Shown in pieces: positions 12,101-24,607 of a stretch of DNA of 27,573 nt (positions within the stretch are counted from its first letter, which is position 1; the number at the start of each line of letters is the position of its first letter). The notes under the pieces are model-generated. The model saw only the letters and a program-made list of their open reading frames with translations, searched no databases and was not told the origin of the DNA. Origin of the DNA: Gemmatimonadota bacterium. Lineage in GTDB: Bacteria > Gemmatimonadota > Gemmatimonadetes > Palauibacterales > Palauibacteraceae. The stretch covers positions 1 to 27,573 of the forward strand of contig JBHIAV010000038.1 in the NCBI GenBank assembly GCA_046758745.1, given 5' to 3'. The position numbers and the translations under genes are program-made.

Positions 12101-12720
12101 AGGTGCGAGACGGCCTTCGGCCCGAAGCGCCCCGTCTCGGGATCCAGGGCGAGCGTGCGGATGCCGAGCCGCGACACGTCCATGGTCCGGTGGTCCCGCT
12201 CCACCACCTCGGGAACTCCGAGAGCGCGCACGCGCTCGTACAGCTCCGCGATCGACTCCACCCCGCAGAAAGTGGTGTGGACGAGGGCGTCCCCGGCCAC
12301 GCATCCACCTCCTGACTGATGAATCAGCGCCATGTCCTTCAGCGTATCGTAGATTCCGTCCAGGCTGTCCGGGACGGGAAGGACGAAGCAGGCACTCAGC
12401 TGGCCGAGGGGCCGGCCGGCGTTCATCAGAGTCGGGCTGTTCGGCTCGAAGTGGCCGAAGGCCATCATCTCGTAGAAGCGCCGGGCGGTCTTCTCCGCCT
12501 GCTCCTGGTTCGCGCCGTAGCGGACATCTTGCGCCGCGATGACCCGCGCCACGCGCCAGAACATGTCGCGCGGCTCCTCGATCGGCTCGCCGTCATCGCT
12601 CTTCTTCAGGTAGCGCCGCGCCAGGACCGTCTTCGCGTTTTCGGTGAGCCGGGGCTCGGGGAGATCGTCCGGAGTGACCTCGCCCGCGATCGCTTCCGCG
12701 ACGGCATCGGGTGGGATCAT
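6166..12720 (-). CDS. nrdJ: Adenosylcobalamin-dependent (class II) ribonucleotide reductase precursor with three inteins; predicted mature protein ~839 aa
   Basis: FEPNSPTLMNAG, QLSACFV, GGG|TGF, QGG|TRRGANM, ATNP|CGEQPL, CNLGSIN, RRIGLGVMG, VAPTGTIS, KGVTVYRDGSR; C-terminal TSCPD-like domain (SSPDAIA) and Zn ribbon CPDC...CMACGYSEC. ATG 12720 follows AGAGGA; alternative start 12804. Confidence 0.95.
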   Translation of the reverse strand: MIPPDAVAEAIAGEVTPDDLPEPRLTENAKTVLARRYLKKSDDGEPIEEPRDMFWRVARVIAAQDVRYGANQEQAEKTARRFYEMMAFGHFEPNSPTLMNAGRPLGQLSACFVLPVPDSLDGIYDTLKDMALIHQSGGGCVAGDALVHTTFCGVESIAELYERVRALGVPEVVERDHRTMDVSRLGIRTLALDPETGRFGPKAVSHLWRWDVPADQQCTIRCRDGSEVTTSAWHPFLVFTGEGVVERRADALRPGDVLLTPNRSVREAWPFTRPVGAEGFVIDEELAWLVGYFLGGGSLDAFRNRAHDYEALRLRFFDGRPESIRFAAGVLERYGVGVRPGQDSRGQWRLTTTNQAFVPAFARLAEVGPGARADRRTLPEWVAKSPLSVVAAFLGGLVDSDCHVNVERRRVVLSTVSPELARRLGTLLSALGFHPALGQKTPRGKARRTEFRVKLANAKNTAQLVELIGGWVHDPFRAERLSRLREAVEQNTHTRIPIPFAGLSELLRAAGVNAGVTAIDKAPVTIAGEEFWLHRAKRGGGIGEDKLRRLAGALRKVLPESYAKRLERLERLAEGWAVVESVRRAEETKGFYDFTVEDFNNYLAGGPNGKMLVIHNTGFGFSRLRPAGDLVKSTMGVASGPVSFMEVYDASTEAVKQGGCVVPETLVSTDRGIVPIRELGPAEAPANSWNPHPAPVMVATDEGPRLSDEFYTHGIATIRRIRTRSGYSLAATLEHRIRVIDADGRYVWRRLEELEPGDWVVLQKGHLLEPDDYSLPVLAGEPHPSAQDVRLPAESSEQLGQFLGYLVGDGSFSRYERAGTTGRLILRIASDQPEVAEWVKRASEELFGLTPVSQQEKNDGSTNYYLNATVLVDWLHQIGVQKSASHAVRVPPIVFRKGMKMARGFLRGLFTAAGVVSQDGHPSLSSLSPDLIGDVQQLLLAVGVPSRVSVTVDRRRAIGDRPLHRLRVVTRAGLEVFADTIGFLDEHRNALLSDDHQMAWAFSDVIPNQETVLPGTYADPASGSGPGSGPVGADRVPTRDIQHYPPGVQAPRDLTRSRLATLAEGPEANGTSPLLWFLANDQFYDQVATIEEDRSLTLDLSVPANNTYVANGFVSHNTRRGANMGILRVDHPDILQFIDCKADKTKITNFNISVAVTDAFMEAVEKGEKYDLVNPRTGQVAGQLDAREVFDKIVYGAWRNGEPGVFFIDEANRYNPVPELGQYEATNPCVIGATRLATDRGLLTMEELERECMEIRVATDDRVPAIRAMERGGGVAVRAKTGVTMRRAVPVFRTRRDAPVFRLVTEHGYEVTATDNHRFFTPRGLIELKDLRPGDTLLLQSGEGAWSHEYALPPFEPEDNLKASVERGGAQLPTRWSKELGQLLGWVVAEGWVTEELPPGRNVPTYTVGLLFGDAECELEPLFRERITRWTGLRGNRMERKGRVQLLYRSGLYYFLRSLGIHAPGEPTRVPESIWSAPREAVLGFLQSLFTADGTVHVSSHRESCTVRLASSEPELLKEVQQLLANFGLVSRIRLRRSAGSRPMPDERGGMEGHAYEAQYELMLEKVSGDRFAERIGFLSRAKQEKVEEWIGRKRKRSVRERYLTRVRSIEPAGEADVYCTTEPVTHSIVVSSLVTVQCGEQPLLPYDVCNLGSINVGHYAKDGKIDWDGLRRAVHDATHYLDNVIDANKYPLPQITDLSHAIRRIGLGVMGWADMLVSLGEPYGSKRSIELGREVMRFIDEESKVASEELAEERGVFPAWERSIWGPDETCARDEEGKRIRPMRRLRNCNVTTVAPTGTISIIAGCSSGIEPLFAVAFMRNQAGVLMPDVNPEFVRLAKEQGWYSEELMRRIADEGHIHFEEVPEDVQKLFVTAHDVTPEQHIRMQAAFQQYTDSAISKTCNFPESATEDDVREIYELAYELRCKGVTVYRDGSRDAQVLSTGRTARRVEVEANGGALEVVAEGELARELAAALGRITQLEKELEEKKGKISELEGGVVRQPLVRERPAALRGITRKIESPLGTMYVTINEDEKGRPFEIFVALGKAGGAAMADAEAIGRLISLGLRSGISLKEIHRQLRGISSDRAVGLGPNKVLSSPDAIAQVLERYLEEKEGVQTALPINDVGETKKANGGARTSEKPIVKRFEEQEALTFIGTCPDCGASLMFAEGCAKCMACGYSECG
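7807..9036 (-). mobile_element. Intein 3 of NrdJ (410 aa), LAGLIDADG-type, C-terminal Gln
   Basis: Inserted in NP|CGE. Starts CVIGATRL; block B TATDNHRF; LLGWVVAEG and FLQSLFTADG endonuclease motifs; block F DVYCTTEP; ends LVTVQ before Cys+1. Confidence 0.92.
9370..10743 (-). mobile_element. Intein 2 of NrdJ (458 aa), LAGLIDADG-type
   Basis: Inserted in KQGG|TRRGA. Starts CVVPETLV; block B ATLEHRI; FLGYLVGDG and FLRGLFTAAG; ends TLDLSVPANNTYVANGFVSHN before Thr+1. Confidence 0.95.
10873..12303 (-). mobile_element. Intein 1 of NrdJ (477 aa), LAGLIDADG-type
   Basis: Inserted in SGGG|TGF. Starts CVAGDALV; block B variant TSAWHPF; LVGYFLGGG and FLGGLVDSDC; ends FYDFTVEDFNNYLAG...VIHN before Thr+1. 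Confidence 0.95.
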
Positions 12721-12998
12721 CGCGTTTCCTCTTCGCGTGCCTCGGGATGGCTGCGGCTCAAGCGGCCTGTCCTCGTCGGCCCGCGGCGGGCGATCGGCGT
12801 CCATGCCTCTGTTCGCCCGCGACTCCCGTGCCGCGCCGCCTGGGTGAGCGACGCCGCGGACCGAATTCGACTCGACATCTATCCACAGGGCCCACAGAGA
12901 CAGCGACCCCTCAGGCTCCGTCTTCCTACACCGCTATGGGCGCGTGGTACCGCGGAAGGAAGGCTCCGGCGTCGCGTTTTTCCACGCCGCCGGCGGGC

Positions 12999-13007
12999 TT
13001 TTTCACA
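12999..13007 (+). promoter_or_regulatory. DnaA-box-like site in the nrdJ leader
   Basis: TTTTTCACA matches TTWTNCACA exactly; one-mismatch copies at 12978-12986 (TTTTCCACG) and 12879-12887 (CTATCCACA), all in the same orientation. Confidence 0.45.
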
Positions 13008-13025
13008 TCCTTTCCCCGCCGAACC

Positions 13026-13041
13026 CCACAACATCTTGGGG
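13026..13041 (-). promoter_or_regulatory. NrdR box (promoter-downstream copy)
   Basis: CCCCAAGATGTTGTGG on the minus strand fits the 16-bp NrdR consensus acaCwAtATaTwGtgt; upstream of an RNR gene; 32 bp from the second box. Confidence 0.8.
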
Positions 13042-13048
13042 TATCGGT

Positions 13049-13077
13049 AGACTAATACCGCGATATGTAGTGGTCAA
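13049..13077 (-). promoter_or_regulatory. Sigma70-type promoter of nrdJ
   Basis: Minus strand TTGACC (13077-13072), 17-nt spacer, TAGTCT (13054-13049); overlapped by an NrdR box. Confidence 0.7.
13058..13073 (-). promoter_or_regulatory. NrdR box (in the promoter spacer)
   Basis: CCACTACATATCGCGG on the minus strand fits the NrdR consensus; tandem with 13026-13041. Confidence 0.8.
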
Positions 13078-13117
13078 GGCCCGGGAGGCGGAATCTCCGC
13101 TTTTGCGAAAAGCGGTC

Positions 13118-13645
13118 TCAGGCCCTTCGCCACCTCCCGGCCCGGTGGCCTTCCCTCAGCACGCCGTAGTGCTCGGTCGTGAGGCGAATCCGGGCGCGGA
13201 GCTCCTCATCCACCTGGCGCAGCACGCGGCCGGGGACACCGACGACGAGGCTTCCGGGCGGCACGCGCATACCCTCCCTGACCAGGGCGCCGGCGGCTAC
13301 GACCGAGCCCCGGCCTATCACGGCGTTCGAGAGAACGATCGACCCCATGCCGATCAGGCAGTCGTCCTCGATCTGACAGCCGTGAATGATGGCTCGGTGG
13401 CCGATCCCCACCCCGGTGCCGATGATCGCCGGCCGGCCGACGTCCACGTGGACGATGGTGAGGTCCTGGATGTTGGTCTCCGCGCCGACGTGGATCGGCG
13501 CGATGTCGCCCCGTAGCACGGAGCCGTACCACACGCTCACCCGCTCACCGAGCGTGACGTCACCGATGAGGAGCGCCGAGGGAGCGACCCACGCGCTCTG
13601 CGCCACCCGCGGCTCCGCCCGGGTCTCCAGATCCTCGATCTTCAT
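13118..13645 (-). CDS. Gamma carbonic anhydrase family (hexapeptide-repeat) protein
   Basis: IGDVTLG, VWYGSVLRGD, TNIQD...VH, IGHRAIIHGC, LIGMGS, VAAGALV; three His ligands present. Confidence 0.92.
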   Translation of the reverse strand: MKIEDLETRAEPRVAQSAWVAPSALLIGDVTLGERVSVWYGSVLRGDIAPIHVGAETNIQDLTIVHVDVGRPAIIGTGVGIGHRAIIHGCQIEDDCLIGMGSIVLSNAVIGRGSVVAAGALVREGMRVPPGSLVVGVPGRVLRQVDEELRARIRLTTEHYGVLREGHRAGRWRRA

Positions 13646-13779
13646 CGTCGGCCTCTCGCAGGATCTTCCACCTCGACCCGACAGCGCCCGCCGCGGGCGG
13701 CTCGCTGTTGGCCGAGGGCGCGTCGCGCTGTCGCCAGTCCCAGCGCCCGGTCCGCTCCCTCTCCCCGCTACAGCCCCCG

Positions 13780-15714
13780 CTACGGTCCCAGCGCCCGCCG
13801 TTTCAGGAACTCGCGGATTCCCTGCAGCACCCCGCGCGCATACGCTTCCTGGAACTCGCGCGTCCTGAGCGCCGCCTCGTGCCGCGGCATCATCATGAAG
13901 GCGCCCTCGGTCAGCACCGACGGCATCCAGGACATGCGGGCCACGGCAAGGTCCCCCCAGTACACCCCGAGGTCCCGCAGCCCCATGCTGCGCAGCATCC
14001 CATCCTGCACGGCGACCGCGAGCCGGCGCGAGTGCTCATGGTAGTAGTAGGTGCTGGTCCCCTCCCTCCCGAAGGGGCGGACGCCGTCGGGCAATGCGTT
14101 GTTGTGGATCGACACGAAGAGCTCGGCGCCCGCGTCCTCGGCTATGCTCGTTCGGTGGTACAGACCGAGGGGAAGGGTGTCGTCGCGGATGAGGATCGGC
14201 GCCGCGCCCTCGGCGCGGAGCAGCTCGGCTAGGAGCCGTCCGATCGCCAGGTTCGCGTCACCCTCGTAGTAGCCGGTCGGGCCGTACGCCCCCGCGCCGG
14301 GATGGCCGGGATCGATCGCGATGCGCCGGTCACGCAGGGGATCGCGGGGATCGATCGCCGGCGGTCGGTGGATCTCGAAGCGCAGGCTCGCCCGGTCGTC
14401 CCCCTCGCTCTCGTACGCGGCCCGATAGCCCCACACCGGCTGCCGGAGGCGCAACGCGAGGCGGTAGCGAAGCCCTTCGTCCTGCTCCCAGCGGATCGAC
14501 TCGATCAGGCGGTGGCCGGCCCCGTACGCGATCCGCTCGGTATTCCCCGCGGCGCCGTACAGGGTAAGGACGAGGGTGTGGTCGTCCGGCTCTTCGACGT
14601 GGAGCGGCAGGGGGCTGGCCAGCGAGATGCGGAGGACGAGCCGGTTTCCCTCCGCGCCGACGGCGAGGTCCCCGACCCGGCTGCGCGGCCTGGCCGTGCC
14701 GGCCGGGAGGATCGTCGCGTCTTCCGCGCTCACCCACGCGTTGAGCCCCGGCGCGAGGCGAAGCCGGAGACGGCCATCTTCACGCCCGTCCACCTCGGCC
14801 CTCGTCCCCACGGGGAAGCGCCACCGGTATGGCCCGAAGGCGATCGGCCGCCCGACGACGATCCCGTTGGAGCCGTTCACGGGGTCGGGCGCCTCGCGCA
14901 GCTCCGCCACCGGCAGCTCGAGGGGATCGAGCAGGCGGAGGGCGTAGGGAAGCTCCGCGAGCGCCGTATCGACGCCGTCCGTTGCGACCACCACGAGGGG
15001 AAGGGGCGCCGGCCCGGGTCCGACCCCGCACGGCTCGAGCTCCCGGCAGGCCGCATCGACGAGGTCGCGGGCCCGGAGCGTGGCGATGTAACGGCCACTG
15101 CCGCTCGGATCGGAGAGATCCGCGATCGACGCCCGCCCGGCGCCGCCCTCCAGCCACATCCGGAGGCCAGGGGCCGCCCGTACCGCGAGCTCGAGCGGCT
15201 CGTCCGGCAGGATCCACTGCTCGCCCCCGCCCGGCAGGGAGGCCGTATCGATCCACACCGGCTCGGTCGCCTCGAAGGGTCGCTCGGGGACGAGGAAGGG
15301 ATGGCGCAGCGAGTCCACCTCCTCTCCGTTCCGCGCGATCAGCCGGTAGAACGCCGTGTCGCCGCTCTCGGGGCGGGGCACCGGAAGCCAGGCCAGGAAG
15401 GAGCCGTTCGGCTCCACGGACACGAGGTGCCCATCGATGATCAGGGTGGCCTCTCCGGTGCCCACGCTCCCGAAGAGGAAGTTCGAGTCCCTGGCCGCGA
15501 TGCGCTGCAGCGAATCGGGATACTCGACGTGCAGGGATACGGGACCGCTCACGGTGGGAATCGGAGGGAGCGCCCCCTCCGGCGCGACGGCAGGCGAGAG
15601 GGAATCGAGGGGTTCCGTGCCTCCGCTCGCGCATCCGGCGGCGAGGAGCGCGGCCGTGACCGATACGGCGACCGCCGCTGTTCGTCCTCCCTCGGCAACG
15701 TCACCGCATCTCAA
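13780..15714 (-). CDS. N-acetylmuramoyl-L-alanine amidase (Amidase_3), predicted lipoprotein with long N-terminal region
   Basis: C-terminal IAIDPGH, EGDANL, FVSIHNNA, SVLTEGAFM Zn-amidase motifs; lipobox LAAGC. Start uncertain (TTG 15714 after GGAGG). Confidence 0.88.
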   Translation of the reverse strand: MRCGDVAEGGRTAAVAVSVTAALLAAGCASGGTEPLDSLSPAVAPEGALPPIPTVSGPVSLHVEYPDSLQRIAARDSNFLFGSVGTGEATLIIDGHLVSVEPNGSFLAWLPVPRPESGDTAFYRLIARNGEEVDSLRHPFLVPERPFEATEPVWIDTASLPGGGEQWILPDEPLELAVRAAPGLRMWLEGGAGRASIADLSDPSGSGRYIATLRARDLVDAACRELEPCGVGPGPAPLPLVVVATDGVDTALAELPYALRLLDPLELPVAELREAPDPVNGSNGIVVGRPIAFGPYRWRFPVGTRAEVDGREDGRLRLRLAPGLNAWVSAEDATILPAGTARPRSRVGDLAVGAEGNRLVLRISLASPLPLHVEEPDDHTLVLTLYGAAGNTERIAYGAGHRLIESIRWEQDEGLRYRLALRLRQPVWGYRAAYESEGDDRASLRFEIHRPPAIDPRDPLRDRRIAIDPGHPGAGAYGPTGYYEGDANLAIGRLLAELLRAEGAAPILIRDDTLPLGLYHRTSIAEDAGAELFVSIHNNALPDGVRPFGREGTSTYYYHEHSRRLAVAVQDGMLRSMGLRDLGVYWGDLAVARMSWMPSVLTEGAFMMMPRHEAALRTREFQEAYARGVLQGIREFLKRRALGP

Positions 15715-15802
15715 GGCTCCTCCCACGAAACGCGCCGCGAGACGACTCCGGGCCCGATCGAGCACGCCTTCCGGAACGACCTCCTCTGCCGGGCTCGAGC
15801 CA

Positions 15803-17542
15803 TCAAGGGGTCGGCGTCGCTCCCACCGGCCGCCGACTCCGCAACAGCCCGACGAGGCCGACAAGGCCGACGGCCAGGGCGAGTACGGCGCCGCGCCACT
15901 CGAGCAGCGTAGCACCGCCCACGGCGAAGAGGCCGCCGAAGAGCAGCAGGACGGCCCACACCGTGCGGGTCATGTCTCTCCTCAGGCCGGTGACCGGCGC
16001 AATACCGAGGCGCCGCCGGATCCGCGCCCACCCCGGCCCGCCCGGGCGAACGCGTCGGTAGAATGCCTCCAGGACTTCGTCGTCCTCCGGTCGGGTGAGG
16101 ATCATCACCGGCACCCAGATGAGGGCCGTTCCACCCGCCGTCACCGCGAGCCGGAGTCCGAACCCCATCCCGCCCCACGCCGGAAGATACGAGAGGAGCG
16201 CGATGGCGAAACCGCCGAGCATGCTGGCCAGCTCCGTCCATGCATTCACGCGCCACCAGAACCAGCGGAGTATGAGCACCGCGCCGGGACCGGTGCCGAT
16301 CGCGATCATGAAGCGGAAGACCGTCCCGATGTCATTCGCATAGAAGGCGGCGACGCCGGCCAGCGCGACGATCACCACCGAACCGACTCGCCCCAGCGCC
16401 ACCAGCCGCGCCGGTGCGGCGCCGGGTGCGACGAAGCGTGCGTACAGGTCGTTGACCAGATAGCTCGCCCCCCAGTTGATCTGGGTCGAGACGGTGGACA
16501 TGAACGCGGCCAGGAAGGAGGCGACGACGAGCCCAAGCAGGCCGGCAGGCAGGTACTCGAGCATGAGGAGCGGGTACCCGAGCTCGGGATCCGCGAGCCC
16601 CGGGAAGATGACGAGGGCGGCGAGCGCGGCGAGGATCCAGGGCCACACGCGAACGACGTAGTGGAGGAGATTGAAGAGCCACGCCGCCCGCTCGGCCTCC
16701 CCCTCGTCCCGGCAGGCCGACATGCGCTGCACGAACTCGCCGCCTCCGTCGGAGCGTCGGAACGCCCACCACTGGATGCCGAGGTAGGCGAGGAAGGTCC
16801 CCATGGGGAGGTCGGGCGTGCCTGGACGCGGGACGAAGTGCAGTACGTGGCCGCGCCCCGCGGCGACGAGCTGGCGTTTCAGCTCGGCGATGCCGCCGAT
16901 GTCGGCCACCGCGAAGCCGGCGACCAGCAGGGCACCGGTCAGGGCGAGGACGAACTGGAAGAAGTCGGTAGCGACCACCCCCCACAGCCCCGAGATACCC
17001 GCATACAGGAGGACGAAGACGCTCAGCCCGACCACGATCCACAGGCGCACGTCACCGGGTAGCGCCGCCGGCAGGTCGCCGAACAGCCCCAGCGCCTCGA
17101 TCACCTTTCGCATGGCGAGCATCACGTAGCCGATCGCGATGCAGTTGATCGGTACGGCGAAGAGGAAGGCGCGGCTGCCACGGAGGAGCGCCGCCGGCCG
17201 GCCGCCGTAGCGGAGCTCGGTGAGCTCCACGTCGGTCACCACCTCGGCGCGGCGCCACAGTCTGGAGAAGACGTAGATGAGGAGGACGTGCGACAGCGCG
17301 AAGGCCCACCACTCCCAGTTGCCGGCGATCCCCCGCCGGGCGACGAGCCCGGTGACGTAGAGGGGAGTGTCGACGGAAAAGGTCGTCGCGGCCATCGAGG
17401 TGCCGGCCAGCCACCACGGGAGAGAGCGGCCGCTGACGAAGAAGTCGACCAGGCTCCCGCTCGCCCGTCGTGCGAGCCACAGGCCGACCCCGAGGGTGCC
17501 GGCCAGGTATAGTGAAATGATCCACCAGTCGATCGGGCGCAG
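15803..17542 (-). CDS. Sodium:solute symporter (SSS) family transporter
   Basis: DFFVSGRSLPWWLAGTSMAATTFS, ELRYGG, GLWGVVATD, VQRM, AAFMSTVSTQINWG; many TM helices. Family-like sequence extends 49 codons upstream of ORF-track start 17395 to a CTG at 17542. Confidence 0.9.
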   Translation of the reverse strand: MRPIDWWIISLYLAGTLGVGLWLARRASGSLVDFFVSGRSLPWWLAGTSMAATTFSVDTPLYVTGLVARRGIAGNWEWWAFALSHVLLIYVFSRLWRRAEVVTDVELTELRYGGRPAALLRGSRAFLFAVPINCIAIGYVMLAMRKVIEALGLFGDLPAALPGDVRLWIVVGLSVFVLLYAGISGLWGVVATDFFQFVLALTGALLVAGFAVADIGGIAELKRQLVAAGRGHVLHFVPRPGTPDLPMGTFLAYLGIQWWAFRRSDGGGEFVQRMSACRDEGEAERAAWLFNLLHYVVRVWPWILAALAALVIFPGLADPELGYPLLMLEYLPAGLLGLVVASFLAAFMSTVSTQINWGASYLVNDLYARFVAPGAAPARLVALGRVGSVVIVALAGVAAFYANDIGTVFRFMIAIGTGPGAVLILRWFWWRVNAWTELASMLGGFAIALLSYLPAWGGMGFGLRLAVTAGGTALIWVPVMILTRPEDDEVLEAFYRRVRPGGPGWARIRRRLGIAPVTGLRRDMTRTVWAVLLLFGGLFAVGGATLLEWRGAVLALAVGLVGLVGLLRSRRPVGATPTP

Positions 17543-17573
17543 CGAGACCCCCTCCCCTCTCCCGCGCGCTGAG

Positions 17574-19268
17574 CTAGGCTTCCCAGCGGCCGCGCTGGGT
17601 CCCCCGGGCCGGCGGCCCGCCCGGCGCGTCCGGGGTCTTCCCGCCTCCGCTCAGGCCGCGTGCATCCGGGACGGAGCCACGAACGCGATCGTCGAGCCAC
17701 CGGGCTGCCGCGCGCTCGATCGTCTCCTCGGCGCCCCACGCGCACGCGCCGGGCCACTCGAGCCCTTCGAGGATACGCCGGTGGCCGAAGACGATCGGGA
17801 AGACGCGACGGGCAGCCGCGCGTGGTTCGCCCGGCGCGCGTCCCTCCTCCCACACGCCGGCCGCCCCGCTCGCCACCCCCCTCGCCACCGCGGCCCGACC
17901 ATCGGGCGTGAGGTCCGCCGTCCCCTTCCACGCCTGCGGCGTGGCCGCGATCAGCACAACGACCTGAGCGGGGGGTGCACCGTCCTCCTCCTCCGACAGC
18001 GGCGCCCACCCGCGAGCCCGGAGCTCCGCCGCGAAAGTCGCTCCGAACGGCGCGCGCCCCGGAGCCTCGCGATCGTCCCGCACGCACACGAGCCGCACCG
18101 GATCGCTCGGATCGAGCACGACCGCGGGATCGCCGATCGCCACGATCGTCTCCTCCGCGAGGCGAAGCGCCTCCTCCTCGCCCTCCGTATCAGGCGCTCC
18201 CGCTCGACCCGCATCCCCGAACCGGCCGAGGAGCGCGGCGCTCCGGGTCAAGGACTCCTCCAGGCGCCGCGCGAGCTCGGGCGACCGCTCCACGGCCCGC
18301 TCCAGCTCCCGGATCGCCTGCTCGAGATCGGGGGGGTAGAGGAGGAGATCGCAGCCCGCGAGGAGAGCCGCCGCCGCGAGACCGCCGTCCGGCCCGTCGT
18401 CCAGCGCGGCGGGGCGACGGCCCGACCGGCCCGAGCCCGACGAGACGCTCCCTCCCGCACCCCCGGTCTCCGAAGCCGGTCCAGCGCGCCCTCCGCGCAG
18501 CAGCCCCTCCATGTTCATCGCATCGCTGACGACCAGCCCCTGGAAGCCGAGCTCCTCCCGCAGAAGACCACGGATCACGGAGGGCTCGAGCGTGGCGGGG
18601 CCGCGCGCCCCGAGGGCGGGGTAAGCGACGTGCGCCGTCATGACCGTCGCCACTCTCGGCGCTACTTCGCGGAACGGGAGGAGGTCTTTCTCGAGACCCT
18701 CCCACCCCTCCTCGACCGTCGGCAGCCCGGCGTGGGAGTCCACCACCGTGCGACCGTGACCCGGAAAGTGCTTCGCGCAGGCCGCCACCCCCTCCGCCTG
18801 GCAGGCCTCGATCCACGCGCTCCCGAGCCTCGCCACCGTCATCGGATCGGCGCTGAAGCTTCGCGAGCCGACGATCGGGTTCCTCGGCTCGACGTCCAGG
18901 TCGAGGACCGGAGCGAGCGCCCAGTTGATGCCGAGCGCCAGCGCATCGCGAGCGGTCCGGCGGGCGGCCCGCCGAGCCGCTCGCTCAGGGTCCGGGTGCG
19001 CGGCGAGACCGCCAGGCGGCGGGAGGGCCGGCAGACCGCGGAACTGCTGGCCCGCGCCACGCTCGAGGTCGGCCGCCATCCACAGCGGCCGCCCCGCGAT
19101 CCGGCGAAGCTCCTCGGAGAGACGTGCCACGTCCGCGGCATCTCCGCCGAAGAGGAGAAAGCCGCCGACCCCGAGGGAGAGGGCGCGCTCCGCGCCTCTC
19201 CGCACCTCCTCCAGCGGCGACCGGTCGAGCCGCAGCGCTTCTACGAAGAGGTGGCCGCACTCCCGCAT
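17574..19268 (-). CDS. nagZ: Glycoside hydrolase family 3 beta-N-acetylhexosaminidase (NagZ-like)
   Basis: ADLERG, GINWALAPVLD, NPIVGSRSFS, KHFPGHG-x4-DSH (NagZ signature), VMTAH, VSDAMNM. ATG overlaps the anmK stop (TGATG). Confidence 0.85.
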   Translation of the reverse strand: MRECGHLFVEALRLDRSPLEEVRRGAERALSLGVGGFLLFGGDAADVARLSEELRRIAGRPLWMAADLERGAGQQFRGLPALPPPGGLAAHPDPERAARRAARRTARDALALGINWALAPVLDLDVEPRNPIVGSRSFSADPMTVARLGSAWIEACQAEGVAACAKHFPGHGRTVVDSHAGLPTVEEGWEGLEKDLLPFREVAPRVATVMTAHVAYPALGARGPATLEPSVIRGLLREELGFQGLVVSDAMNMEGLLRGGRAGPASETGGAGGSVSSGSGRSGRRPAALDDGPDGGLAAAALLAGCDLLLYPPDLEQAIRELERAVERSPELARRLEESLTRSAALLGRFGDAGRAGAPDTEGEEEALRLAEETIVAIGDPAVVLDPSDPVRLVCVRDDREAPGRAPFGATFAAELRARGWAPLSEEEDGAPPAQVVVLIAATPQAWKGTADLTPDGRAAVARGVASGAAGVWEEGRAPGEPRAAARRVFPIVFGHRRILEGLEWPGACAWGAEETIERAAARWLDDRVRGSVPDARGLSGGGKTPDAPGGPPARGTQRGRWEA

Positions 19269-20413
19269 CACGCCGGCACGCGCTTGCCGAGGATCCGGGC
19301 CCCGCGGGCGCCCGTGGCCCACTCCGGGCTCGCCGCGAAGCCCAGGAGATGCTGGCGGGCGAGGAGGGCGAAGGCGGCGGCCTCGCGCGCATCGCCCTCC
19401 CACCCGAGCGCGGCAAGGTCGGCCAACGGCGTCGGGGCGAGCCGCTCGGCGAGGCGCCGACGCAGCTCGGCGTTGCGGGCGCCGCCCCCGCACAGGTACA
19501 CCTCCTCCACCTCGAAGCCGATCCACCGGTAGCTGCCGGCGATCGAGCGCGCCGTGACCTCGGTGAGCGTCGACACCAGATCTTCCGGACGGGCCTCCCG
19601 GTGCCGCGCCATCCAACGTTCGAGCGGCGCGGAACCGAAACGCTCCCGTCCCGTACTCCGAGGCGGCGGCTCGGAGAAGAAGGGATCGGCGAGCCACTCC
19701 TCCACGGCCCGCTCGAGCACCTGCCCGTGCGCCGCCATCTCTCCGTCGCGATCGTACGCCACCTCGCCGCCGGTGAGCCGCCGCACGGCGCCGTCGATGA
19801 GCGCCACCCCGGGTCCGGTATCGAAGGCGACCGGCGGTCGCCCCTCCCCGACCCTCGGAAGCGCGGTCACGTTCGCCATCCCCCCGATGTTCTGGATGGC
19901 GCGCGTCGCCCGCCGCGAGGAGAGGAGCAGCCGATCGAAGTAGGGAGTGAGGGGGGCGCCGTGCCCGCCGGCCGCCATATCGCGCACCCGGAAGTCGGCG
20001 ACCACCGTGATGCCCGTCCGCTCCGCGATGACGGCCGGTTCTCCGATCTGGAGCGTGCTGCCCGGCCTCCCGCCGGCCGGTGGCCGGTGCCGCACCGTCT
20101 GGCCGTGGCTGCCGATCGCGGCGACCTGGCCGGGCGTGATCCCCGACGCCGCGAGGGTGGCGAGCACCGCGTCGGCGAAGCGCGTCCCGAGCGTGAAGTC
20201 CAGCTCGCACAGCTCGTCCGCCGTGGTCGACTCACCTCCGTCGCACGCGCGCCGGAGAGCCTCGCGGAAGGCGGCGTCGTACGGGTGCGCCTGGAAGGCC
20301 GCGAGCGCGGCCGGCTCCGGCCTCTCGCCTCGGCCGCCCATCTCCACCACAGCGACGTCGATCCCGTCCAGCGAGGTGCCGGACATGACGCCGACGTACA
20401 GCTCCCCCTTCAG
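19268..20413 (-). CDS. anmK: Anhydro-N-acetylmuramic acid kinase
   Basis: VGVMSGTSLDGID, IGSHGQTVRH, DFRVRDMAAGGHGAPL, NIGGMAN, FDTGPG, RSTGRERF, CGGGARN, REAAAFA. Probable CTG start overlapping the murQ TGA. Confidence 0.95.
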   Translation of the reverse strand: MKGELYVGVMSGTSLDGIDVAVVEMGGRGERPEPAALAAFQAHPYDAAFREALRRACDGGESTTADELCELDFTLGTRFADAVLATLAASGITPGQVAAIGSHGQTVRHRPPAGGRPGSTLQIGEPAVIAERTGITVVADFRVRDMAAGGHGAPLTPYFDRLLLSSRRATRAIQNIGGMANVTALPRVGEGRPPVAFDTGPGVALIDGAVRRLTGGEVAYDRDGEMAAHGQVLERAVEEWLADPFFSEPPPRSTGRERFGSAPLERWMARHREARPEDLVSTLTEVTARSIAGSYRWIGFEVEEVYLCGGGARNAELRRRLAERLAPTPLADLAALGWEGDAREAAAFALLARQHLLGFAASPEWATGARGARILGKRVPA

Positions 20414-22038
20414 GACCCGGCCTCCGGCGTCGAGGGAGCGGCCTCCGGCGTCGAGGGAGCGGCGTCCGGCCTCGAGCGGTCCGCCTCCGGCGTCGAGCGG
20501 GCGGCGCCCGCTTCGAGGAGGGCGGGGTGCACGCGCTCGCATATGCGGATGGCGTGCGCGTCGTCGTGCTGCGCGACGCCTTGCAGGAACTGAAACGCCG
20601 TGAGCTCCTCTCCGCCGAGCGCGGCGCGGCGCCTGAAGAACGCCGCCTCGGCGGCCTCGAGCATCGAGAGGGTCTCGGCCCGTTCGGCCTCGAAGCGGTC
20701 GAGGAGCGGGCGCGGCTCGAGCTCTTCGAGCGGCGGGTCGGGGGAGGGCTCCCAATCGGAGAGGCATGGGTGCTCCTCCACGGCGAACGCCCGCACCCGG
20801 AGCCGCACGGCCTCGGCCTCGAACTGAATGAGGTGGGCGAGGTGCTGCGACGTGGTCCAGCGGCCGGTTCGCCGCCCCGCCGCTTCGGCCTCTTCCACCG
20901 CCGATCGGAGCCGCGACGGGGCGTCGCGCATCCGATCGATCATCTCCTCGATCTGCCGCGGTCCTCCGACCTCCGGATACACGGAGTAGCACGAGGGACG
21001 CCCGGTCCCCGCGGGGCGGAAGCGCTCGAGGGCCCTCCCTAGCAATCCGTGGCACGCGTCGAGCGCGCTTTCGGCGAGGAACCGGTTCGCGCCCAGCTCA
21101 TGCATGGCGATCGCCGTCTTCACGGATCCGCCGGCCGCGACCAGCAGCCGCCGAGCTTCTTCCCTCCTCAACCCGCACACGGCATGGAGGATGCGGAGGC
21201 TCCGGTCGACCAGCTTGAGGCTGGTGGCCCGCAGGTCGACCATGAGGTTCTCGTACACCTTCCCGAGACGGATCATCACACCGGTGGTGAGCGCGTTCAG
21301 CACCAGCTTGGTCGCGGTGCCCGCTTTCATGCGGGTAGAGCCGGCGATGACCTCGGGGCCGACGAGCGGCGTGACGACGACGTCGGCCAGCTGGCGCATC
21401 CGCTCCGGCGGCTCGGTACAGCTGAGGAAGCCGATCGCGGCCTCGCGCGCCGCCGCCTCCTCGAGCGCCGCCCGCACATACGGAGTCGTCCCCGAGGTGG
21501 CGATCCCGAGCACGAAGTCCCGCCGGCCCACCTCCGCCTCCCGGATCGCGGCGCGCCCTCCCTCCCGATCATCCTCGTCGCCCTCCCGGCTGCGCACGAG
21601 CGCCGGTGGTCCGCCCGCGATGATTCCCTGCACCGTCCGCGGGTCCGTCCCGAAGGTGGGGGGACACTCGGCCGCGTCCAGCACCCCGAGACGCCCGCTC
21701 GTTCCGGCCCCGACGTAGATGAGCCGTCCGCCCCGCCGGAGTCGCGCCGCCACCTCGTCGATGAGCCGCGCGACGGGGTCGCTCTGGGCCTCGACGGCGG
21801 CGGGGACGGTGCGATCCTCGGCGAAGATGAGCCGCACGATCTCTCTCGAGTCGGCCAGGTCGATGTGCTTGGTGGAGGGGTTGCGCGTCTCGGTGAGCCG
21901 GGGATCTTCGAGGAGCCAGGGATCTTCGAGGTCGGACGCGCGGGCGCCACGAGTGTCGGAGGACCCGCCCGCTTCCGTTTGCTCGCCCCTGATGTCGCCG
22001 GTACATTCGGCGCCGGCTCCCACGGGTAGGTCTTTCAT
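20410..22038 (-). CDS. murQ: N-acetylmuramic acid 6-phosphate etherase fused to a C-terminal DinB-like domain
   Basis: TETRNP, GAGTSGRLGVLDAAECPPTFG, TSGTTPYV, GPEVIAGSTRMKAGTATKLVLN, NLMVDL; additional ~140 aa helical domain with WTTSQHLAHL and HDDAH. Confidence 0.93.
   Translation of the reverse strand: MKDLPVGAGAECTGDIRGEQTEAGGSSDTRGARASDLEDPWLLEDPRLTETRNPSTKHIDLADSREIVRLIFAEDRTVPAAVEAQSDPVARLIDEVAARLRRGGRLIYVGAGTSGRLGVLDAAECPPTFGTDPRTVQGIIAGGPPALVRSREGDEDDREGGRAAIREAEVGRRDFVLGIATSGTTPYVRAALEEAAAREAAIGFLSCTEPPERMRQLADVVVTPLVGPEVIAGSTRMKAGTATKLVLNALTTGVMIRLGKVYENLMVDLRATSLKLVDRSLRILHAVCGLRREEARRLLVAAGGSVKTAIAMHELGANRFLAESALDACHGLLGRALERFRPAGTGRPSCYSVYPEVGGPRQIEEMIDRMRDAPSRLRSAVEEAEAAGRRTGRWTTSQHLAHLIQFEAEAVRLRVRAFAVEEHPCLSDWEPSPDPPLEELEPRPLLDRFEAERAETLSMLEAAEAAFFRRRAALGGEELTAFQFLQGVAQHDDAHAIRICERVHPALLEAGAARSTPEADRSRPDAAPSTPEAAPSTPEAGS
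20419..20502. repeat. Four tandem 21-bp repeats at the murQ 3' end
   Basis: GGCCTCCGGCGTCGAGGGAGC twice identical (20419-20460) plus two degenerate copies; encodes repeats of the APSTPEA type. Confidence 0.85.
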
Positions 22039-22082
22039 GGAACGCTCAAGTTAATGGCGCCTTCGAGGGGCCGACAGATGCC

Positions 22083-22784
22083 GTGAGACCTGCCACCGCC
22101 GAGACGCCTCCGACGAACTCCCGTCGCACACGCGCCCTTCTCCGGATCGCGCGCCACCTCGAGTCGGTCTACGGAACGCGGCGTAAGCCGAGGCGCGAGC
22201 CGCTCGACGAGCTGATCCACACCATCCTCAGCCAGAGCACCGCGGACGCAAACCGCGACCGCGCCTGGAAGGCGCTCCGCGAGCGATACCCGGATTGGGA
22301 GGCGGTGCGAGGCGCCTCCGTCGAGGAGATCGAGGAGACGATCCGCATCGCAGGCCTCGCCGGCCAGAAGTCCCGCACGATCAGGGGGATGCTGGAGCGG
22401 CTGCACGAGGAGCGCGGCGCGGCGACGCTCGACCATCTACGGGAGATGCACCCGGAGAAGGCGCTCTCGTACCTCTGCGGCTTCCGGGGCGTCGGGGTGA
22501 AGACCGCGGCCTGCGTGCTCTGCTTCTCGCTCGGCCAGCCGATCATGCCGGTGGACACACACGTCCATCGTCTCGCGGTCCGGCTGGGTTGGGTTCCGGC
22601 GGGAGCGAGCGCCGCGCGCGCACACCGCTCGCTCAACGAGCTCGTACCGCCTCGGCTGCGCTACTCTCTCCACGTGCAGCTCATCGAGCACGGTCGCCGG
22701 GTGTGCACGGCCCGGCGTCCGGCGTGCGGGGGCTGCCCTCTCGCTGCGGCCTGTCCAAGGATCGGGGTGGAAGACCCACGATGA
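22083..22784 (+). CDS. nth: Endonuclease III family HhH-GPD DNA glycosylase
   Basis: ILSQST, GVGVKTAACVL, MPVDTHVHR and FeS motif CTARRPACGGCPLAAAC. Confidence 0.88.
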   Translation: MRPATAETPPTNSRRTRALLRIARHLESVYGTRRKPRREPLDELIHTILSQSTADANRDRAWKALRERYPDWEAVRGASVEEIEETIRIAGLAGQKSRTIRGMLERLHEERGAATLDHLREMHPEKALSYLCGFRGVGVKTAACVLCFSLGQPIMPVDTHVHRLAVRLGWVPAGASAARAHRSLNELVPPRLRYSLHVQLIEHGRRVCTARRPACGGCPLAAACPRIGVEDPR

Positions 22785-24607
22785 GCGAGGATAGGGGGGA
22801 CCCGCCTGCGGCCCCATCGGCGCGGCCGCGGCGGGCGGCGGGCGGCCTCGGGATCCGGGCCTCCCGGGGCGCTCTCCTCTGCCTGGCGCTTCTCACGGCC
22901 TGCGCCCCCAAGTGGGACGGGGAGACGGCCGCAGCGGCCGGGTCTGCCTGGCAGACCCCTCGCTTCCCGGCCGGGTGGCGCTACGGGCCCGACGACGCGC
23001 CGGCGGCGAGCGGCCGCGGGATGGTCGTAACGACCGACTCGCTGGCGAGCGCCGCCGGACTGGAGATCCTGCTCGCCGGCGGGAATGCCGTCGATGCCGC
23101 GATCGCTGTCCAGTTCGCCCTCGCCGTGGTGAACCCGGAGGCCGGCAACATCGGGGGGGGCGGCTTCCTGGTGGTGCGGCTGGCCGATGACACCCGCGCG
23201 GCGCTCGACTTCCGCGAGCAGGCCCCCCTCGGGGCCACGCCCGACATGTTCCTGGACGAGAACGGCGAGGTGACGGAGGCGAGCTGGACGGGTCACCTCG
23301 CGGCCGGGGTGCCCGGATCGGTGGCGGGCATGGCGGAGGCCCATCGCCGGTTCGGCAGCCTCCCCTGGGCCCGCCTGCTGGAGCCGGCGGTCCGGCTCGC
23401 CCGGGACGGGTTCGTGATCGCCGGTCAGCACCACCGCTCCATCCGCAGGGAGTCGCAGCGGCTCTCGCGCTACCCGGCCAGCGCCGCCGTCTTCCTACCG
23501 GGCGGGGAGGCTCCGCCCATCGGGTCGCGGTTCCGCCAGCCGGACCTCGCCCGCACGCTGCATGCGATCGCGGAGGAAGGCGCCTCCGTCTTCTACACGG
23601 GGTGGATCGCCGACTCGATCGCGGCGGAGATGAGGCGGGGTGGCGGCCTCGTCGACCGGGAGAGCCTGGCCGCGTACCGCGCGGTGTGGCGAGAGCCCAT
23701 CCAGGTGGAGTACCGGGGGTACGAGATCCTCTCCGTGCCGCCCCCGTCGTCCGGCGGGGTCACGCTCGGCGAGTTGCTCAACATCGTCGAAGGATACGAC
23801 CTCGGAGCACTCGGCTGGCACTCGGCCGAGGCGATTCACGTCGCCGCGGAGGCGATGCGGCGAGCGTACGGCGACCGGAACTACTACCTGGGCGACCCGG
23901 ACTTCGTCGACATGCCTCTCGCCCGACTTCTAAGTCAGGCGTACGCCGACTCGCTCGCCGCCTCCATCGACCCGGGACACGCCTCGCCCTCGAGCGCTTT
24001 CAACAAGGTGCCCACCGAGTCGACTCAGACGACCCACTTCTCGGTCATCGACTCGGCGGGCAACGCGGTCGCCGTCACCACCACCCTGAACGGCGGCTTT
24101 GGATCGGCCGTCGTGGTGCGCGGAGCCGGGTTCGTCCTGAACAACGAGATGGACGACCTGACGGCGAAGCCGGGCGTCCCGAACGCGTACGGCCTCGTAC
24201 AGGGGGAGGCGAATGCCATCCGTCCGGGCAAGCGCCCGCTATCGGCGATGACCCCGACGATCGTGATCGCGCCGGACGGCCGCACCGAGCTCATCACCGG
24301 GACGCCGGGAGGCTCGACGATCATCACCACCGTCTTCCAGATCATCACCAACCACATCGATTTCCGGCTGCCCGTGCAGACGTCCGTCAACGCGCCGCGC
24401 TTCCATCACCAGAACCTCCCGGACCAGATCTACTACGAGCGCGGCGGGCTGGACTCGGGTACCGTCGGCGAGCTGGAGAGCCGAGGCCACAGGGTGGTGG
24501 AGCGCAGCGGCGTCTCGGGCGACGTGCAGTCGATCTACATCGCCCCGGACGGGACGCGCTACGGGGCCGCCGACCACCGGCGCGATAGCAAGGCGCTGGG
24601 CTACTGA
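22781..24607 (+). CDS. ggt: Gamma-glutamyltransferase, probable lipoprotein
   Basis: GGNAVDAA, AGNIGGGGF, DFREQAP, GVPGSVAG, PPPSSGG, autocleavage TTHFS, LNNEMDD, KRPLSAMTP, GTPGGSTI; ATGA overlap with nth; lipobox LTAC. Confidence 0.95.
   Translation: MSEDRGDPPAAPSARPRRAAGGLGIRASRGALLCLALLTACAPKWDGETAAAAGSAWQTPRFPAGWRYGPDDAPAASGRGMVVTTDSLASAAGLEILLAGGNAVDAAIAVQFALAVVNPEAGNIGGGGFLVVRLADDTRAALDFREQAPLGATPDMFLDENGEVTEASWTGHLAAGVPGSVAGMAEAHRRFGSLPWARLLEPAVRLARDGFVIAGQHHRSIRRESQRLSRYPASAAVFLPGGEAPPIGSRFRQPDLARTLHAIAEEGASVFYTGWIADSIAAEMRRGGGLVDRESLAAYRAVWREPIQVEYRGYEILSVPPPSSGGVTLGELLNIVEGYDLGALGWHSAEAIHVAAEAMRRAYGDRNYYLGDPDFVDMPLARLLSQAYADSLAASIDPGHASPSSAFNKVPTESTQTTHFSVIDSAGNAVAVTTTLNGGFGSAVVVRGAGFVLNNEMDDLTAKPGVPNAYGLVQGEANAIRPGKRPLSAMTPTIVIAPDGRTELITGTPGGSTIITTVFQIITNHIDFRLPVQTSVNAPRFHHQNLPDQIYYERGGLDSGTVGELESRGHRVVERSGVSGDVQSIYIAPDGTRYGAADHRRDSKALGY

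Follow-up and report, generated by a model that had tools for sequence, protein, structure and literature searches.

The window, which is the whole stretch of 27,573 nt analysed here, carries on its minus strand, in this order, murQ (fused to a DinB_2 domain), anmK, nagZ, a gene encoding an SSS-family symporter and a gene encoding an Amidase_3 lipoprotein, with short or overlapping junctions (Table 1). The original prediction had described murQ, anmK and nagZ as co-directional with overlapping stop and start codons, and this was borne out, with all five genes on the minus strand and with the overlaps CTGA, at the probable anmK start, and TGATG, formed by the anmK stop and the nagZ ATG. It had also placed the symporter gene 31 nt past the nagZ stop, a spacing that was confirmed, with CTG at 17542 as the start codon.

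Table 1. Features of the putative cell-wall recycling locus and its divergent neighbour (positions in the window)
Feature	Coordinates	Strand	Description
murQ	20410..22038	-	MurNAc-6-phosphate etherase, 542 aa, residues about 48-339, plus C-terminal DinB_2
anmK	about 19268..20413	-	anhydro-MurNAc kinase; probable CTG start
nagZ	17574..19268	-	GH3 beta-N-acetylglucosaminidase, 564 aa, no signal peptide
SSS gene	15803..17542	-	SSS-family (SGLT-like) symporter, 579 aa, CTG start; Pfam SSF
Amidase_3 gene	13780..15714	-	exported N-acetylmuramoyl-L-alanine amidase; TTG start, 88 nt past the SSS stop
gamma-glutamyltranspeptidase gene	22781..24607	+	divergent from murQ; Pfam G_glu_transpept 2.5e-173; lipoprotein-type signal

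MurQ matches NCBIfam NF003915 with 369 bits and exceeds the equivalog cut-off of TIGR00274 (328 bits vs 302), while its C-terminal DinB_2 domain occupies residues 370-496 (Pfam 2.5e-8). AnmK likewise exceeds its equivalog cut-off (NF007148, 433 bits vs 387). The Pfam match of AnmK (4.1e-105) begins 5 residues ahead of the first Met, and because the conserved N-terminus thus starts upstream of the first ATG (20386), the gene likely starts with CTG at 20413, overlapping the murQ stop. NagZ was identified by Pfam Glyco_hydro_3 (1.7e-58) and scores 154.9 bits with NF003740, under the cut-off of 207. At residue 166 it carries KHFPGHGRTVVDSH, and KH(F/I)PG(H/L)G....D(S/T)H is what we take to be the motif of cytoplasmic NagZ-type GH3 enzymes. 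The N-terminus of NagZ contains no signal peptide, as had been proposed.

The reading frame of the symporter has no ATG, GTG or TTG ahead of residue 50. The codon aligned with its start is ATG, GTG or TTG in 70/72 orthologues and CTG in the other 2, and three other runs of the hydrothermal-vent study in question gave DNA contigs that span position 17542 and agree with the CTG there. The amidase lipoprotein predicted after the symporter was recognised by a C-terminal Amidase_3 domain (Pfam 8.7e-35) and a lipoprotein-type signal ending in LAAGC. Its long N-terminal region resembles those of Gemmatimonadota and cyanobacterial AmiC-type amidases, and its atlas neighbours are Amidase_3 clusters, a minority of whose members possess AMIN or SH3_3 domains. 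A scan of positions 13000-22500 returned no promoter-like and one terminator-like site, fewer than in shuffled controls, and is uninformative for this phylum.

The symporter belongs to the SSS family by Pfam SSF (PF00474; 85.8 bits vs a cut-off of 22.8, E 3.6e-24), scores 126 bits with NCBIfam TIGR00813, under its stricter cut-off of 184, and was assigned to no specific family by the NCBIfam profile search. It is thus an SSS and not an MFS protein and falls outside the AmpG family, so that any likeness to AmpG would be a functional analogy only. Its sequence matches vSGLT (2xq2) at E 2.4e-26 and SiaT (5nv9) at E 5.8e-10. The AlphaFold2 model (pLDDT 80.7, pTM 0.86) is predicted to adopt the LeuT-type fold common to the solved SSS members, and its top Foldseek matches are SGLT2, SGLT1, NIS, vSGLT and SiaT (TM 0.63-0.72 by query). 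SGLT2 and SGLT1 are the nearest solved folds, with TM 0.70 and only about 20% identity. S349 and T350 of the symporter align with S364 and S365 of vSGLT, which we take to be the hydroxyl residues of the Na2 site. Among 77 orthologues, S349 is invariant, and 73 have T at position 350, against 3 with S and 1 with A. Because this Na2-type Ser/Thr pair is conserved, the symporter is probably Na+-coupled.

MurQ releases D-lactate, and some SSS proteins carry carboxylates, among them SMCT1, the 25th-ranked fold match, so a role in handling this by-product or another small carboxylate was considered. We regard it as highly improbable: the best matches by both sequence and fold are the sugar carriers vSGLT, SGLT1 and SGLT2, and the alternation with AmpG described below is not expected of a lactate carrier.

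The conservation of the neighbourhood was assessed at 80 loci found using the SSS protein, with flanks of up to 8 kb fetched (genomes, genera and loci are given below by working numbers, G, g and L). The order murQ-anmK-nagZ-SSS is complete in 35 of the 80 and partial, cut by contig ends, in 11 more, and because it recurs in this way, the arrangement is far beyond chance. When Cyanobacteria, Rhodothermales and Planctomycetota are excluded, nagZ lies directly upstream of the symporter gene in 46/57 loci, joined by anmK and murQ wherever the flank reaches. Ten of the remaining 11 have less than 700 nt of upstream flank, and one (L041) has ample flank and is unlinked. The linkage anticipated by the original prediction is therefore found throughout Gemmatimonadota, and it is seen in that phylum only. 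The orthologues of Cyanobacteria (15 loci), Rhodothermales/Bacteroidota (7) and Planctomycetota (1) share 54-63% identity and have unrelated Pfam neighbours, with murQ, anmK and nagZ absent from flanks of up to 8 kb. In a FastTree phylogeny, 8 paralogues fall outside a single clade that unites the 77 orthologues (SH-like support 100), and the cyanobacterial and Rhodothermales sequences are nested among the operon-linked Gemmatimonadota ones.

The gene encoding gamma-glutamyltranspeptidase adjoins murQ in 23/35 complete loci, in 17/20 further loci and in 6/6 AmpG-linked loci. It is a conserved neighbour of the cluster, and its belonging to the recycling pathway is only a lead.

The restriction of the linkage to one phylum, the unlinked gene of L041 and the want of a specific NCBIfam family would suit a symporter that carries an unrelated solute and owes its position to inherited gene order. 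Paralogues of the symporter (39-50% identity), however, also adjoin amino-sugar genes, encoding GH3, a BadF/BcrAD-family kinase, a PIG-L deacetylase and GH109, and the distribution of AmpG argues further against an unrelated solute. Among six AmpG-linked Gemmatimonadota loci fetched, L106 and L108 have the order murQ-anmK-nagZ-AmpG-amidase, so that AmpG fills the very slot, between nagZ and the amidase gene, that the symporter fills here. At L106, L108 and L109, Pfam assigned the AmpG gene to MFS_1.

Of 121 Gemmatimonadota genomes sampled, 100 possess anmK. Among these 100, 16 have an SSS orthologue (at least 55% identity) at a distance of 2.4-4.4 kb from anmK, and 15, including the unpublished G053, have an AmpG-family gene (TIGR00901, 278-480 bits) within 1.3-4.5 kb of anmK. 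Both stand beside anmK in 0/100. The two even switch inside single genera: in g13, the symporter is present in G025, G041 and G092 and an AmpG-like gene in G118, while in g27 the symporter is present in G049 and AmpG (496 bits) in G079. Across whole genomes, 18 Gemmatimonadota with the symporter and 20 with AmpG (E<1e-50) show no overlap, and neither do 18 and 42 (AmpG-like) among 151 Cyanobacteria, or 13 and 32 among 101 sampled genomes of the Rhodothermales-containing class of G123. Overlaps of 3.0, 5.0 and 4.1, respectively, would be expected under independence, and the naive hypergeometric P values for zero overlap (0.03, 0.002 and 0.005) overstate the case, because related genomes are not independent. 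The anti-correlation with ampG suggested at the outset is hence seen both as a shared slot in Gemmatimonadota and as zero overlap in the samples of three lineages. A counter-example from outside the samples is G122, which has the symporter together with a 198-bit AmpG-like gene. The SSS-bearing Gemmatimonadota genome G045 contains a weak, 128-bit AmpG match. In view of the shared slot, the switches inside two genera and the absence of overlap in three lineages, we consider an unrelated solute improbable.

Neither transporter lies beside anmK in 69 of the 100 anmK-bearing Gemmatimonadota genomes, and no transporter was found beside anmK in 20 such loci inspected. This implies either that there are further importers or that cells can do without import. 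In Cyanobacteria, anmK is present in 150/151 genomes, so its co-occurrence with the symporter is uninformative there.

The source genome (G000) is 87% complete. AmpG (TIGR00901), Amidase_2 and GH20 were not found in it, the NagZ of the operon is the only GH3 found, and three SLT lytic transglycosylases are present. Amidase_2 and true Mpl are absent from four further SSS-linked genomes (96-100% complete), and NagA (TIGR00221) gave only weak partial matches in 5/5 SSS-linked genomes. Amidase_2 (AmpD/AmiD) was discarded as a means of telling SSS-type from AmpG-type genomes, being absent from 5/5 SSS-linked and also from 4/5 AmpG-linked genomes. A BadF-type tandem pair (169-227 bits; G000, G065 and G023) was rejected as a sugar kinase, since it looks like a BcrA/BcrD-type activator. 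A third, weaker BadF match (95-106 bits) occurs in each of G065 and G023, and no BadF-type kinase was found in the SSS-linked genomes G054 and G078.

Taken together, we propose, with a probability of about 0.6, that the operon serves the recycling of peptide-free cell-wall sugars and that its SGLT-like symporter, probably Na+-coupled, imports GlcNAc-anhMurNAc; what it carries, in which direction and with which ion are inferred. In this scheme, the exported Amidase_3 lipoprotein would strip stem peptides in the periplasm and lytic transglycosylases would release GlcNAc-1,6-anhydroMurNAc, which the symporter would import, as AmpG does elsewhere. Cytoplasmic NagZ would then split the disaccharide, AnmK would convert anhMurNAc into MurNAc-6-phosphate, and MurQ would convert the latter into GlcNAc-6-phosphate and D-lactate. 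Because no cytoplasmic Amidase_2 was found, the symporter is probably restricted to peptide-free sugars.

A symporter importing one of the monosaccharides that cell-wall breakdown yields (anhMurNAc, MurNAc or GlcNAc) instead of the disaccharide would accord with the characterised SSS substrates, none of which is known to exceed the size of a monosaccharide (sialic acid or below), and with SiaT being a detectable relative. It would also fit the paralogue cluster of other Gemmatimonadota, in which a GH3 and a PF00144 protein, both with lipoprotein signals, are followed by two SSS genes and a BadF-type kinase, a layout suggestive of outside cleavage and subsequent uptake. The gene content of the source genome nevertheless favours the disaccharide over anhMurNAc: because the only GH3 found in it has no signal peptide and no GH20 was found, no extracytoplasmic cleavage of the disaccharide is apparent in this 87%-complete genome. 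Moreover, nagZ stands immediately ahead of the symporter gene in the 46 loci counted above, and the slot is otherwise held by AmpG, whose reported main substrate, GlcNAc-anhMurNAc (available text of PMC5154545), needs both GlcNAc and anhMurNAc. On this balance, import of a monosaccharide seems rather unlikely, though it deserves more weight than the lactate or unrelated-solute readings.

Import of GlcNAc-anhMurNAc by the symporter would have consequences beyond this genome. In proteobacteria, the recycling of anhydro-muropeptides is well understood and relies on AmpG. The position of an SSS protein in AmpG's operon slot suggests that an importer of cell-wall fragments has so far gone undescribed. 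In the literature searched, no SSS transporter was found to be described in the import of such fragments, in agreement with the initial statement that no characterised one is known in this role, and the present one would be, to our knowledge, the family's first demonstrated disaccharide carrier. There is about an even chance that the clade as a whole is the missing anhydro-muropeptide permease of AmpG-less diderms, importing GlcNAc-1,6-anhydroMurNAc in a Na+-coupled manner. The AmpG-less diderms concerned include many Gemmatimonadota, some Rhodothermales and, patchily, Cyanobacteria (Crocosphaera, Trichodesmium and a UCYN-A4 MAG among them). According to the available text of PMC7133116, Synechocystis has NagZ, AnmK and MurQ, while NagE, MurP and AmpG are all absent, and if the proposal is true, it would supply the importer that cyanobacterial peptidoglycan recycling has been noted to lack. 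The SGLT-like gene sll1087 of Synechocystis is at most a possible orthologue of the symporter. A dedicated SSS importer would fill a recycling gap in several phyla and widen the substrate range of the SSS family by a new class. Inside single genera, AmpG and the symporter alternate in the same place, which offers a clean natural experiment in non-orthologous displacement.

Compared with known systems, the symporter has the same proposed job and genomic slot as AmpG (MFS; TIGR00901) of the AmpG-NagZ-AnmK-MurQ route, and each excludes the other in the genomes sampled, whereas their superfamilies and folds (MFS vs LeuT-type) are unrelated. By sequence and fold, vSGLT, SGLT1 and SGLT2 are its nearest solved relatives, and the Na2-site serines are conserved, but these three carriers transport hexoses instead of the proposed N-acetylated anhydro-disaccharide, and the symporter forms a separate, uncharacterised clade of about 580-aa proteins. 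SiaT, a Na+/sialic acid SSS symporter, handles an acidic N-acetylated sugar with a chemistry like that of MurNAc; this detectable relative is more distant than the SGLTs (TM 0.63 by query) and has a different gene context. TfMurT, encoded in the murTKQ operon of Tannerella forsythia and compared here by description only, is a non-PTS, non-AmpG importer adjoining murQ and a sugar kinase. Unlike the symporter as proposed here, TfMurT (Tanf_08375) takes free MurNAc, in an organism without AnmK (PMC7670621), and its family is inconsistently reported, being called MFS in one paper and related to NagX, suggestive of another family, in PMC9007349. The available text of a 2024 review lists only one AmpG replacement, the ABC system YejBEF-YepA of Agrobacterium, a precedent for a non-homologous transporter replacing AmpG in an AmpG-less bacterium (PMC11509177). 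Unlike the proposed symporter, YejBEF-YepA works with a binding protein and imports peptide-bearing muropeptides.

Cyanobacteria, the class of a Rhodothermales genome and Gemmatimonadota all contain a sodium:solute symporter (SSS) of one clade that never occurred together with AmpG in our samples, and in Gemmatimonadota it occupies the same slot beside anmK that AmpG takes in other genomes. The window has a G+C content of about 70%, is present in hydrothermal-vent metagenome runs, and encodes proteins whose top homologues are from Gemmatimonadota, while its genome, G000, comprises 3.08 Mb in 130 contigs with a completeness of 87.4%. Five genes run in the same direction on the minus strand from 22038 to 13780. 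The layout given in the original prediction, with overlapping junctions, the SSS gene shortly after nagZ and an amidase lipoprotein last, was found as described.

Features of the operon and other genes in the window
Feature	Position	Strand	Assignment
murQ	22038..20410	-	MurNAc-6-phosphate etherase equivalog TIGR00274 passed, 328 bits vs 302
DinB_2 domain	residues 370-496, C-terminal in MurQ	-	Pfam
anmK	probable start 20413	-	equivalog NF007148 passed, 433 bits vs 387
nagZ	19268..17574	-	GH3; start overlaps anmK stop as TGATG
SSS gene	start 17542, 31 nt past nagZ stop	-	Pfam SSF, 579 aa
Amidase_3 gene	88 nt past SSS gene	-	lipoprotein-type signal
EndoIII-like gene	22083-22784	+	divergent from murQ
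Gamma-glutamyltranspeptidase (GGT) gene	22781-24607	+	lipoprotein-type signal; divergent from murQ
Ribonucleotide reductase gene	6166-12804	-	2212 aa; ATP-cone-less N and barrel domains, TSCPD domain

NagZ scores below the curated NagZ cut-off, has an N-terminus without a signal peptide, and possesses the motif KHFPGHG....DSH, which we take to be of NagZ type. Its C-terminal half (residues ~265-564) has no Pfam match and includes a Gly/Ser/Arg-rich low-complexity stretch. A DinB-like stretch directly follows murQ in 16 of 80 related loci, each with an SSS identity of at least 73%. The ribonucleotide reductase gene is interrupted by three inteins, with three Intein_splicing and three LAGLIDADG_3 matches in Pfam. 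As well, GGT is kept beside murQ in Gemmatimonadota with either transporter, and one may speculate that it processes gamma-D-glutamyl stem peptides released by the amidase.

From the end of nagZ onward no stop codon breaks the SSS reading frame, but its first ATG, GTG or TTG occurs only at residue 50, while the codon at 17542 is CTG, just downstream of a GGAGG-rich stretch. The start codons aligned at this position in 72 SSS orthologues (ATG in 45, GTG in 21, TTG in four, and CTG in two, L014 and L021) confirm the position of the start. An assembly error in one sample does not account for the CTG, as contigs from another three runs of the vent study span 17542 with zero differences. Similarly, the conserved N-terminus of AnmK begins upstream of the first ATG, suggesting a CTG overlapping the murQ stop as the likely start; CTG is thus the apparent start for the SSS gene and probably for anmK.

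Gene coordinates were compared across 121 evenly sampled Gemmatimonadota genomes, of which 100 carry anmK. An SSS orthologue (55-100% identity) lies 2.4-4.4 kb from anmK in 16 of these 100 genomes and an AmpG-family gene 1.3-4.5 kb from it in 15, including the unpublished G053; no genome has both beside anmK, and 69 have neither. Among six AmpG-linked loci fetched, L106 and L108 carry murQ-anmK-nagZ-AmpG-amidase on a single strand, gene for gene as in the window save for the transporter, while the AmpG gene is convergent in L109; all three AmpG genes belong to MFS_1 (Pfam). The two transporters alternate within families f3 and f4 and genera g13 and g27, and so do not reflect a single ancient split. 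SSS paralogues of 41-50% identity were never on the same contig as anmK. In 20 loci with neither transporter, what comes after murQ-anmK(-nagZ) is an FHA/PP2C/kinase/trypsin cluster, and no transporter gene was found there. This cluster of FHA, PP2C phosphatase, Ser-Thr kinase and FHA-trypsin genes is convergent to murQ-anmK-nagZ in many genomes that have no linked transporter (L086-L098 and others).

The anti-correlation with ampG that had been predicted was borne out in three sampled lineages. In Cyanobacteria, where anmK is present in 150 of 151 genomes, SSS orthologues occur in 18 (53-63% identity, with no matches between E 1e-60 and 1e-174) and AmpG-like genes (E<=1e-30) in 42, 33 of them above the curated cut-off, with zero overlap. 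The class of the Rhodothermales genome G123 has the orthologue in 13 of 101 genomes (at least 57% identity; two partial matches) and AmpG-like genes in 32, again without overlap, as is the case for 18 orthologue carriers and 20 genomes with AmpG (E<1e-50) in Gemmatimonadota, where one SSS carrier, G045, has a weak 128-bit AmpG match. Had the two genes been distributed independently, the expected overlap would be 5.0 genomes in Cyanobacteria, 4.1 in the G123 class and 3.0 in Gemmatimonadota; the naive probabilities of zero overlap (0.002, 0.005 and 0.03, respectively) are only indicative, since related genomes are non-independent. However, G122 (Baaleninema), from outside the samples, is a counter-example with both the SSS gene and a 198-bit AmpG-like gene; this score class was also seen as a second copy beside a true AmpG, suggesting that the G122 gene may be another MFS protein.

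The predicted conservation of the SSS neighbourhood with anmK and murQ held in Gemmatimonadota, but did not extend to other phyla. Scanning a single genome for each species gave 80 loci, which were then searched with the window proteins: the full order murQ, anmK, nagZ, SSS is present in 35 and a partial set in a further 11, while 10, where the flank upstream of the SSS gene is shorter than 700 nt, are uninformative; in L041 (Gemmatimonadaceae) the flank is sufficient and the SSS gene is unlinked. The fetched flanks of 15 cyanobacterial, seven Rhodothermales/Bacteroidota and one Planctomycetota loci (SSS identity 54-62% to the window protein) contain zero pathway genes, and their neighbours are unrelated according to Pfam, indicating that physical linkage is a Gemmatimonadota trait. 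In a close relative (L010), EndoIII and GGT are directly followed by nagZ-SSS, with no murQ or anmK detected between. A polytopic membrane protein of ~520-570 aa, with no Pfam family and 51-55% identity between loci, separates nagZ from the SSS gene in L032 (6272-7807), L035 (5635-7245), L050 (6340-7881) and L056 (5552-7267), and partial copies occur at the ends of L192, L194 and L197.

The closest solved relatives of the SSS protein are vSGLT, SGLT1 and SGLT2, and an AlphaFold2 model from 25 input sequences (pLDDT 80.7) predicts a fold with SGLT2 and SGLT1 as top matches (TM 0.70). S349, which is invariant among 77 orthologues, and T350, which is nearly so, align with vSGLT serines presumably forming the Na2 site. 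FastTree, applied to 85 sequences and giving a quick tree with long branches flagged, groups the 77 orthologues in a single clade (SH-like support 100, stem 0.64) with eight paralogues outside, and cyanobacterial and Rhodothermales sequences nest inside the operon-linked Gemmatimonadota ones. A relative 63% identical to a cyanobacterial orthologue is on a 613-kb contig of a Candidatus Atelocyanobacterium thalassae UCYN-A4 MAG (L178); provided that the bin is clean, its persistence in so small a genome would be noteworthy. Cultured cyanobacteria that carry the orthologue include Leptolyngbya sp. PCC 7375, Crocosphaera chwakensis CCY0110 and Hydrococcus rivularis NIES-593. Moreover, SSS paralogues of 44-50% identity lie in a second amino-sugar cluster (L112-L115, L119) of a GH3 lipoprotein, a PF00144 beta-lactamase-family lipoprotein, SSS, an IscA-like protein, a second SSS (~28% identity) and a BadF/BcrAD-family kinase, and the G054 paralogues (39-42% identity) adjoin PIG-L deacetylase or GH109 and Gfo/Idh/MocA genes.

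SSS proteins are not known to carry substrates as large as GlcNAc-anhMurNAc, and the paralogue cluster of other Gemmatimonadota, in which GH3 and PF00144 lipoproteins precede a pair of SSS genes and a BadF-type kinase, looks like monosaccharide import; import of a monosaccharide is therefore kept as the main rival to import of the disaccharide. No AmpG, Amidase_2 or GH20 was found in G000 at its 87.4% completeness, where three SLT-type lytic transglycosylases are present and the single GH3 is the operon NagZ. Since this NagZ has no signal peptide and GH20 was not found, the GlcNAc-anhMurNAc bond would have to be cleaved intracellularly; this agrees with import of the disaccharide and speaks against the monosaccharide, as does the requirement of AmpG for the same disaccharide reported in PMC5154545. 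Four further SSS-linked genomes (96-100% complete) likewise yielded no Amidase_2, and no true Mpl, so peptides must come off before import, in keeping with the exported amidase. The operon had been read correctly, and the predicted role survives the tests proposed with it; from comparative genomics, we put the probability that the SSS protein imports GlcNAc-anhMurNAc at roughly 0.6, and uptake of a cell-wall amino sugar of one kind or another for the recycling pathway as more probable still.

Finally, the open-access literature returned no description of an SSS protein or symporter tied to anmK/murQ, anhMurNAc or peptidoglycan recycling (for the last, judged by title and the opening of the abstract); for Gemmatimonadota peptidoglycan recycling the matches are unrelated by title. 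A 2024 review of muropeptide transporters has 'symporter' only in a reference title, for a host peptide carrier, and excerpts of it name MurP, NagE, AmpG, Opp/MppA, YejBEF-YepA and CadB (PMC11509177). TfMurT of Tannerella, whose family assignment is inconsistent between papers, is the nearest precedent for the SSS protein.
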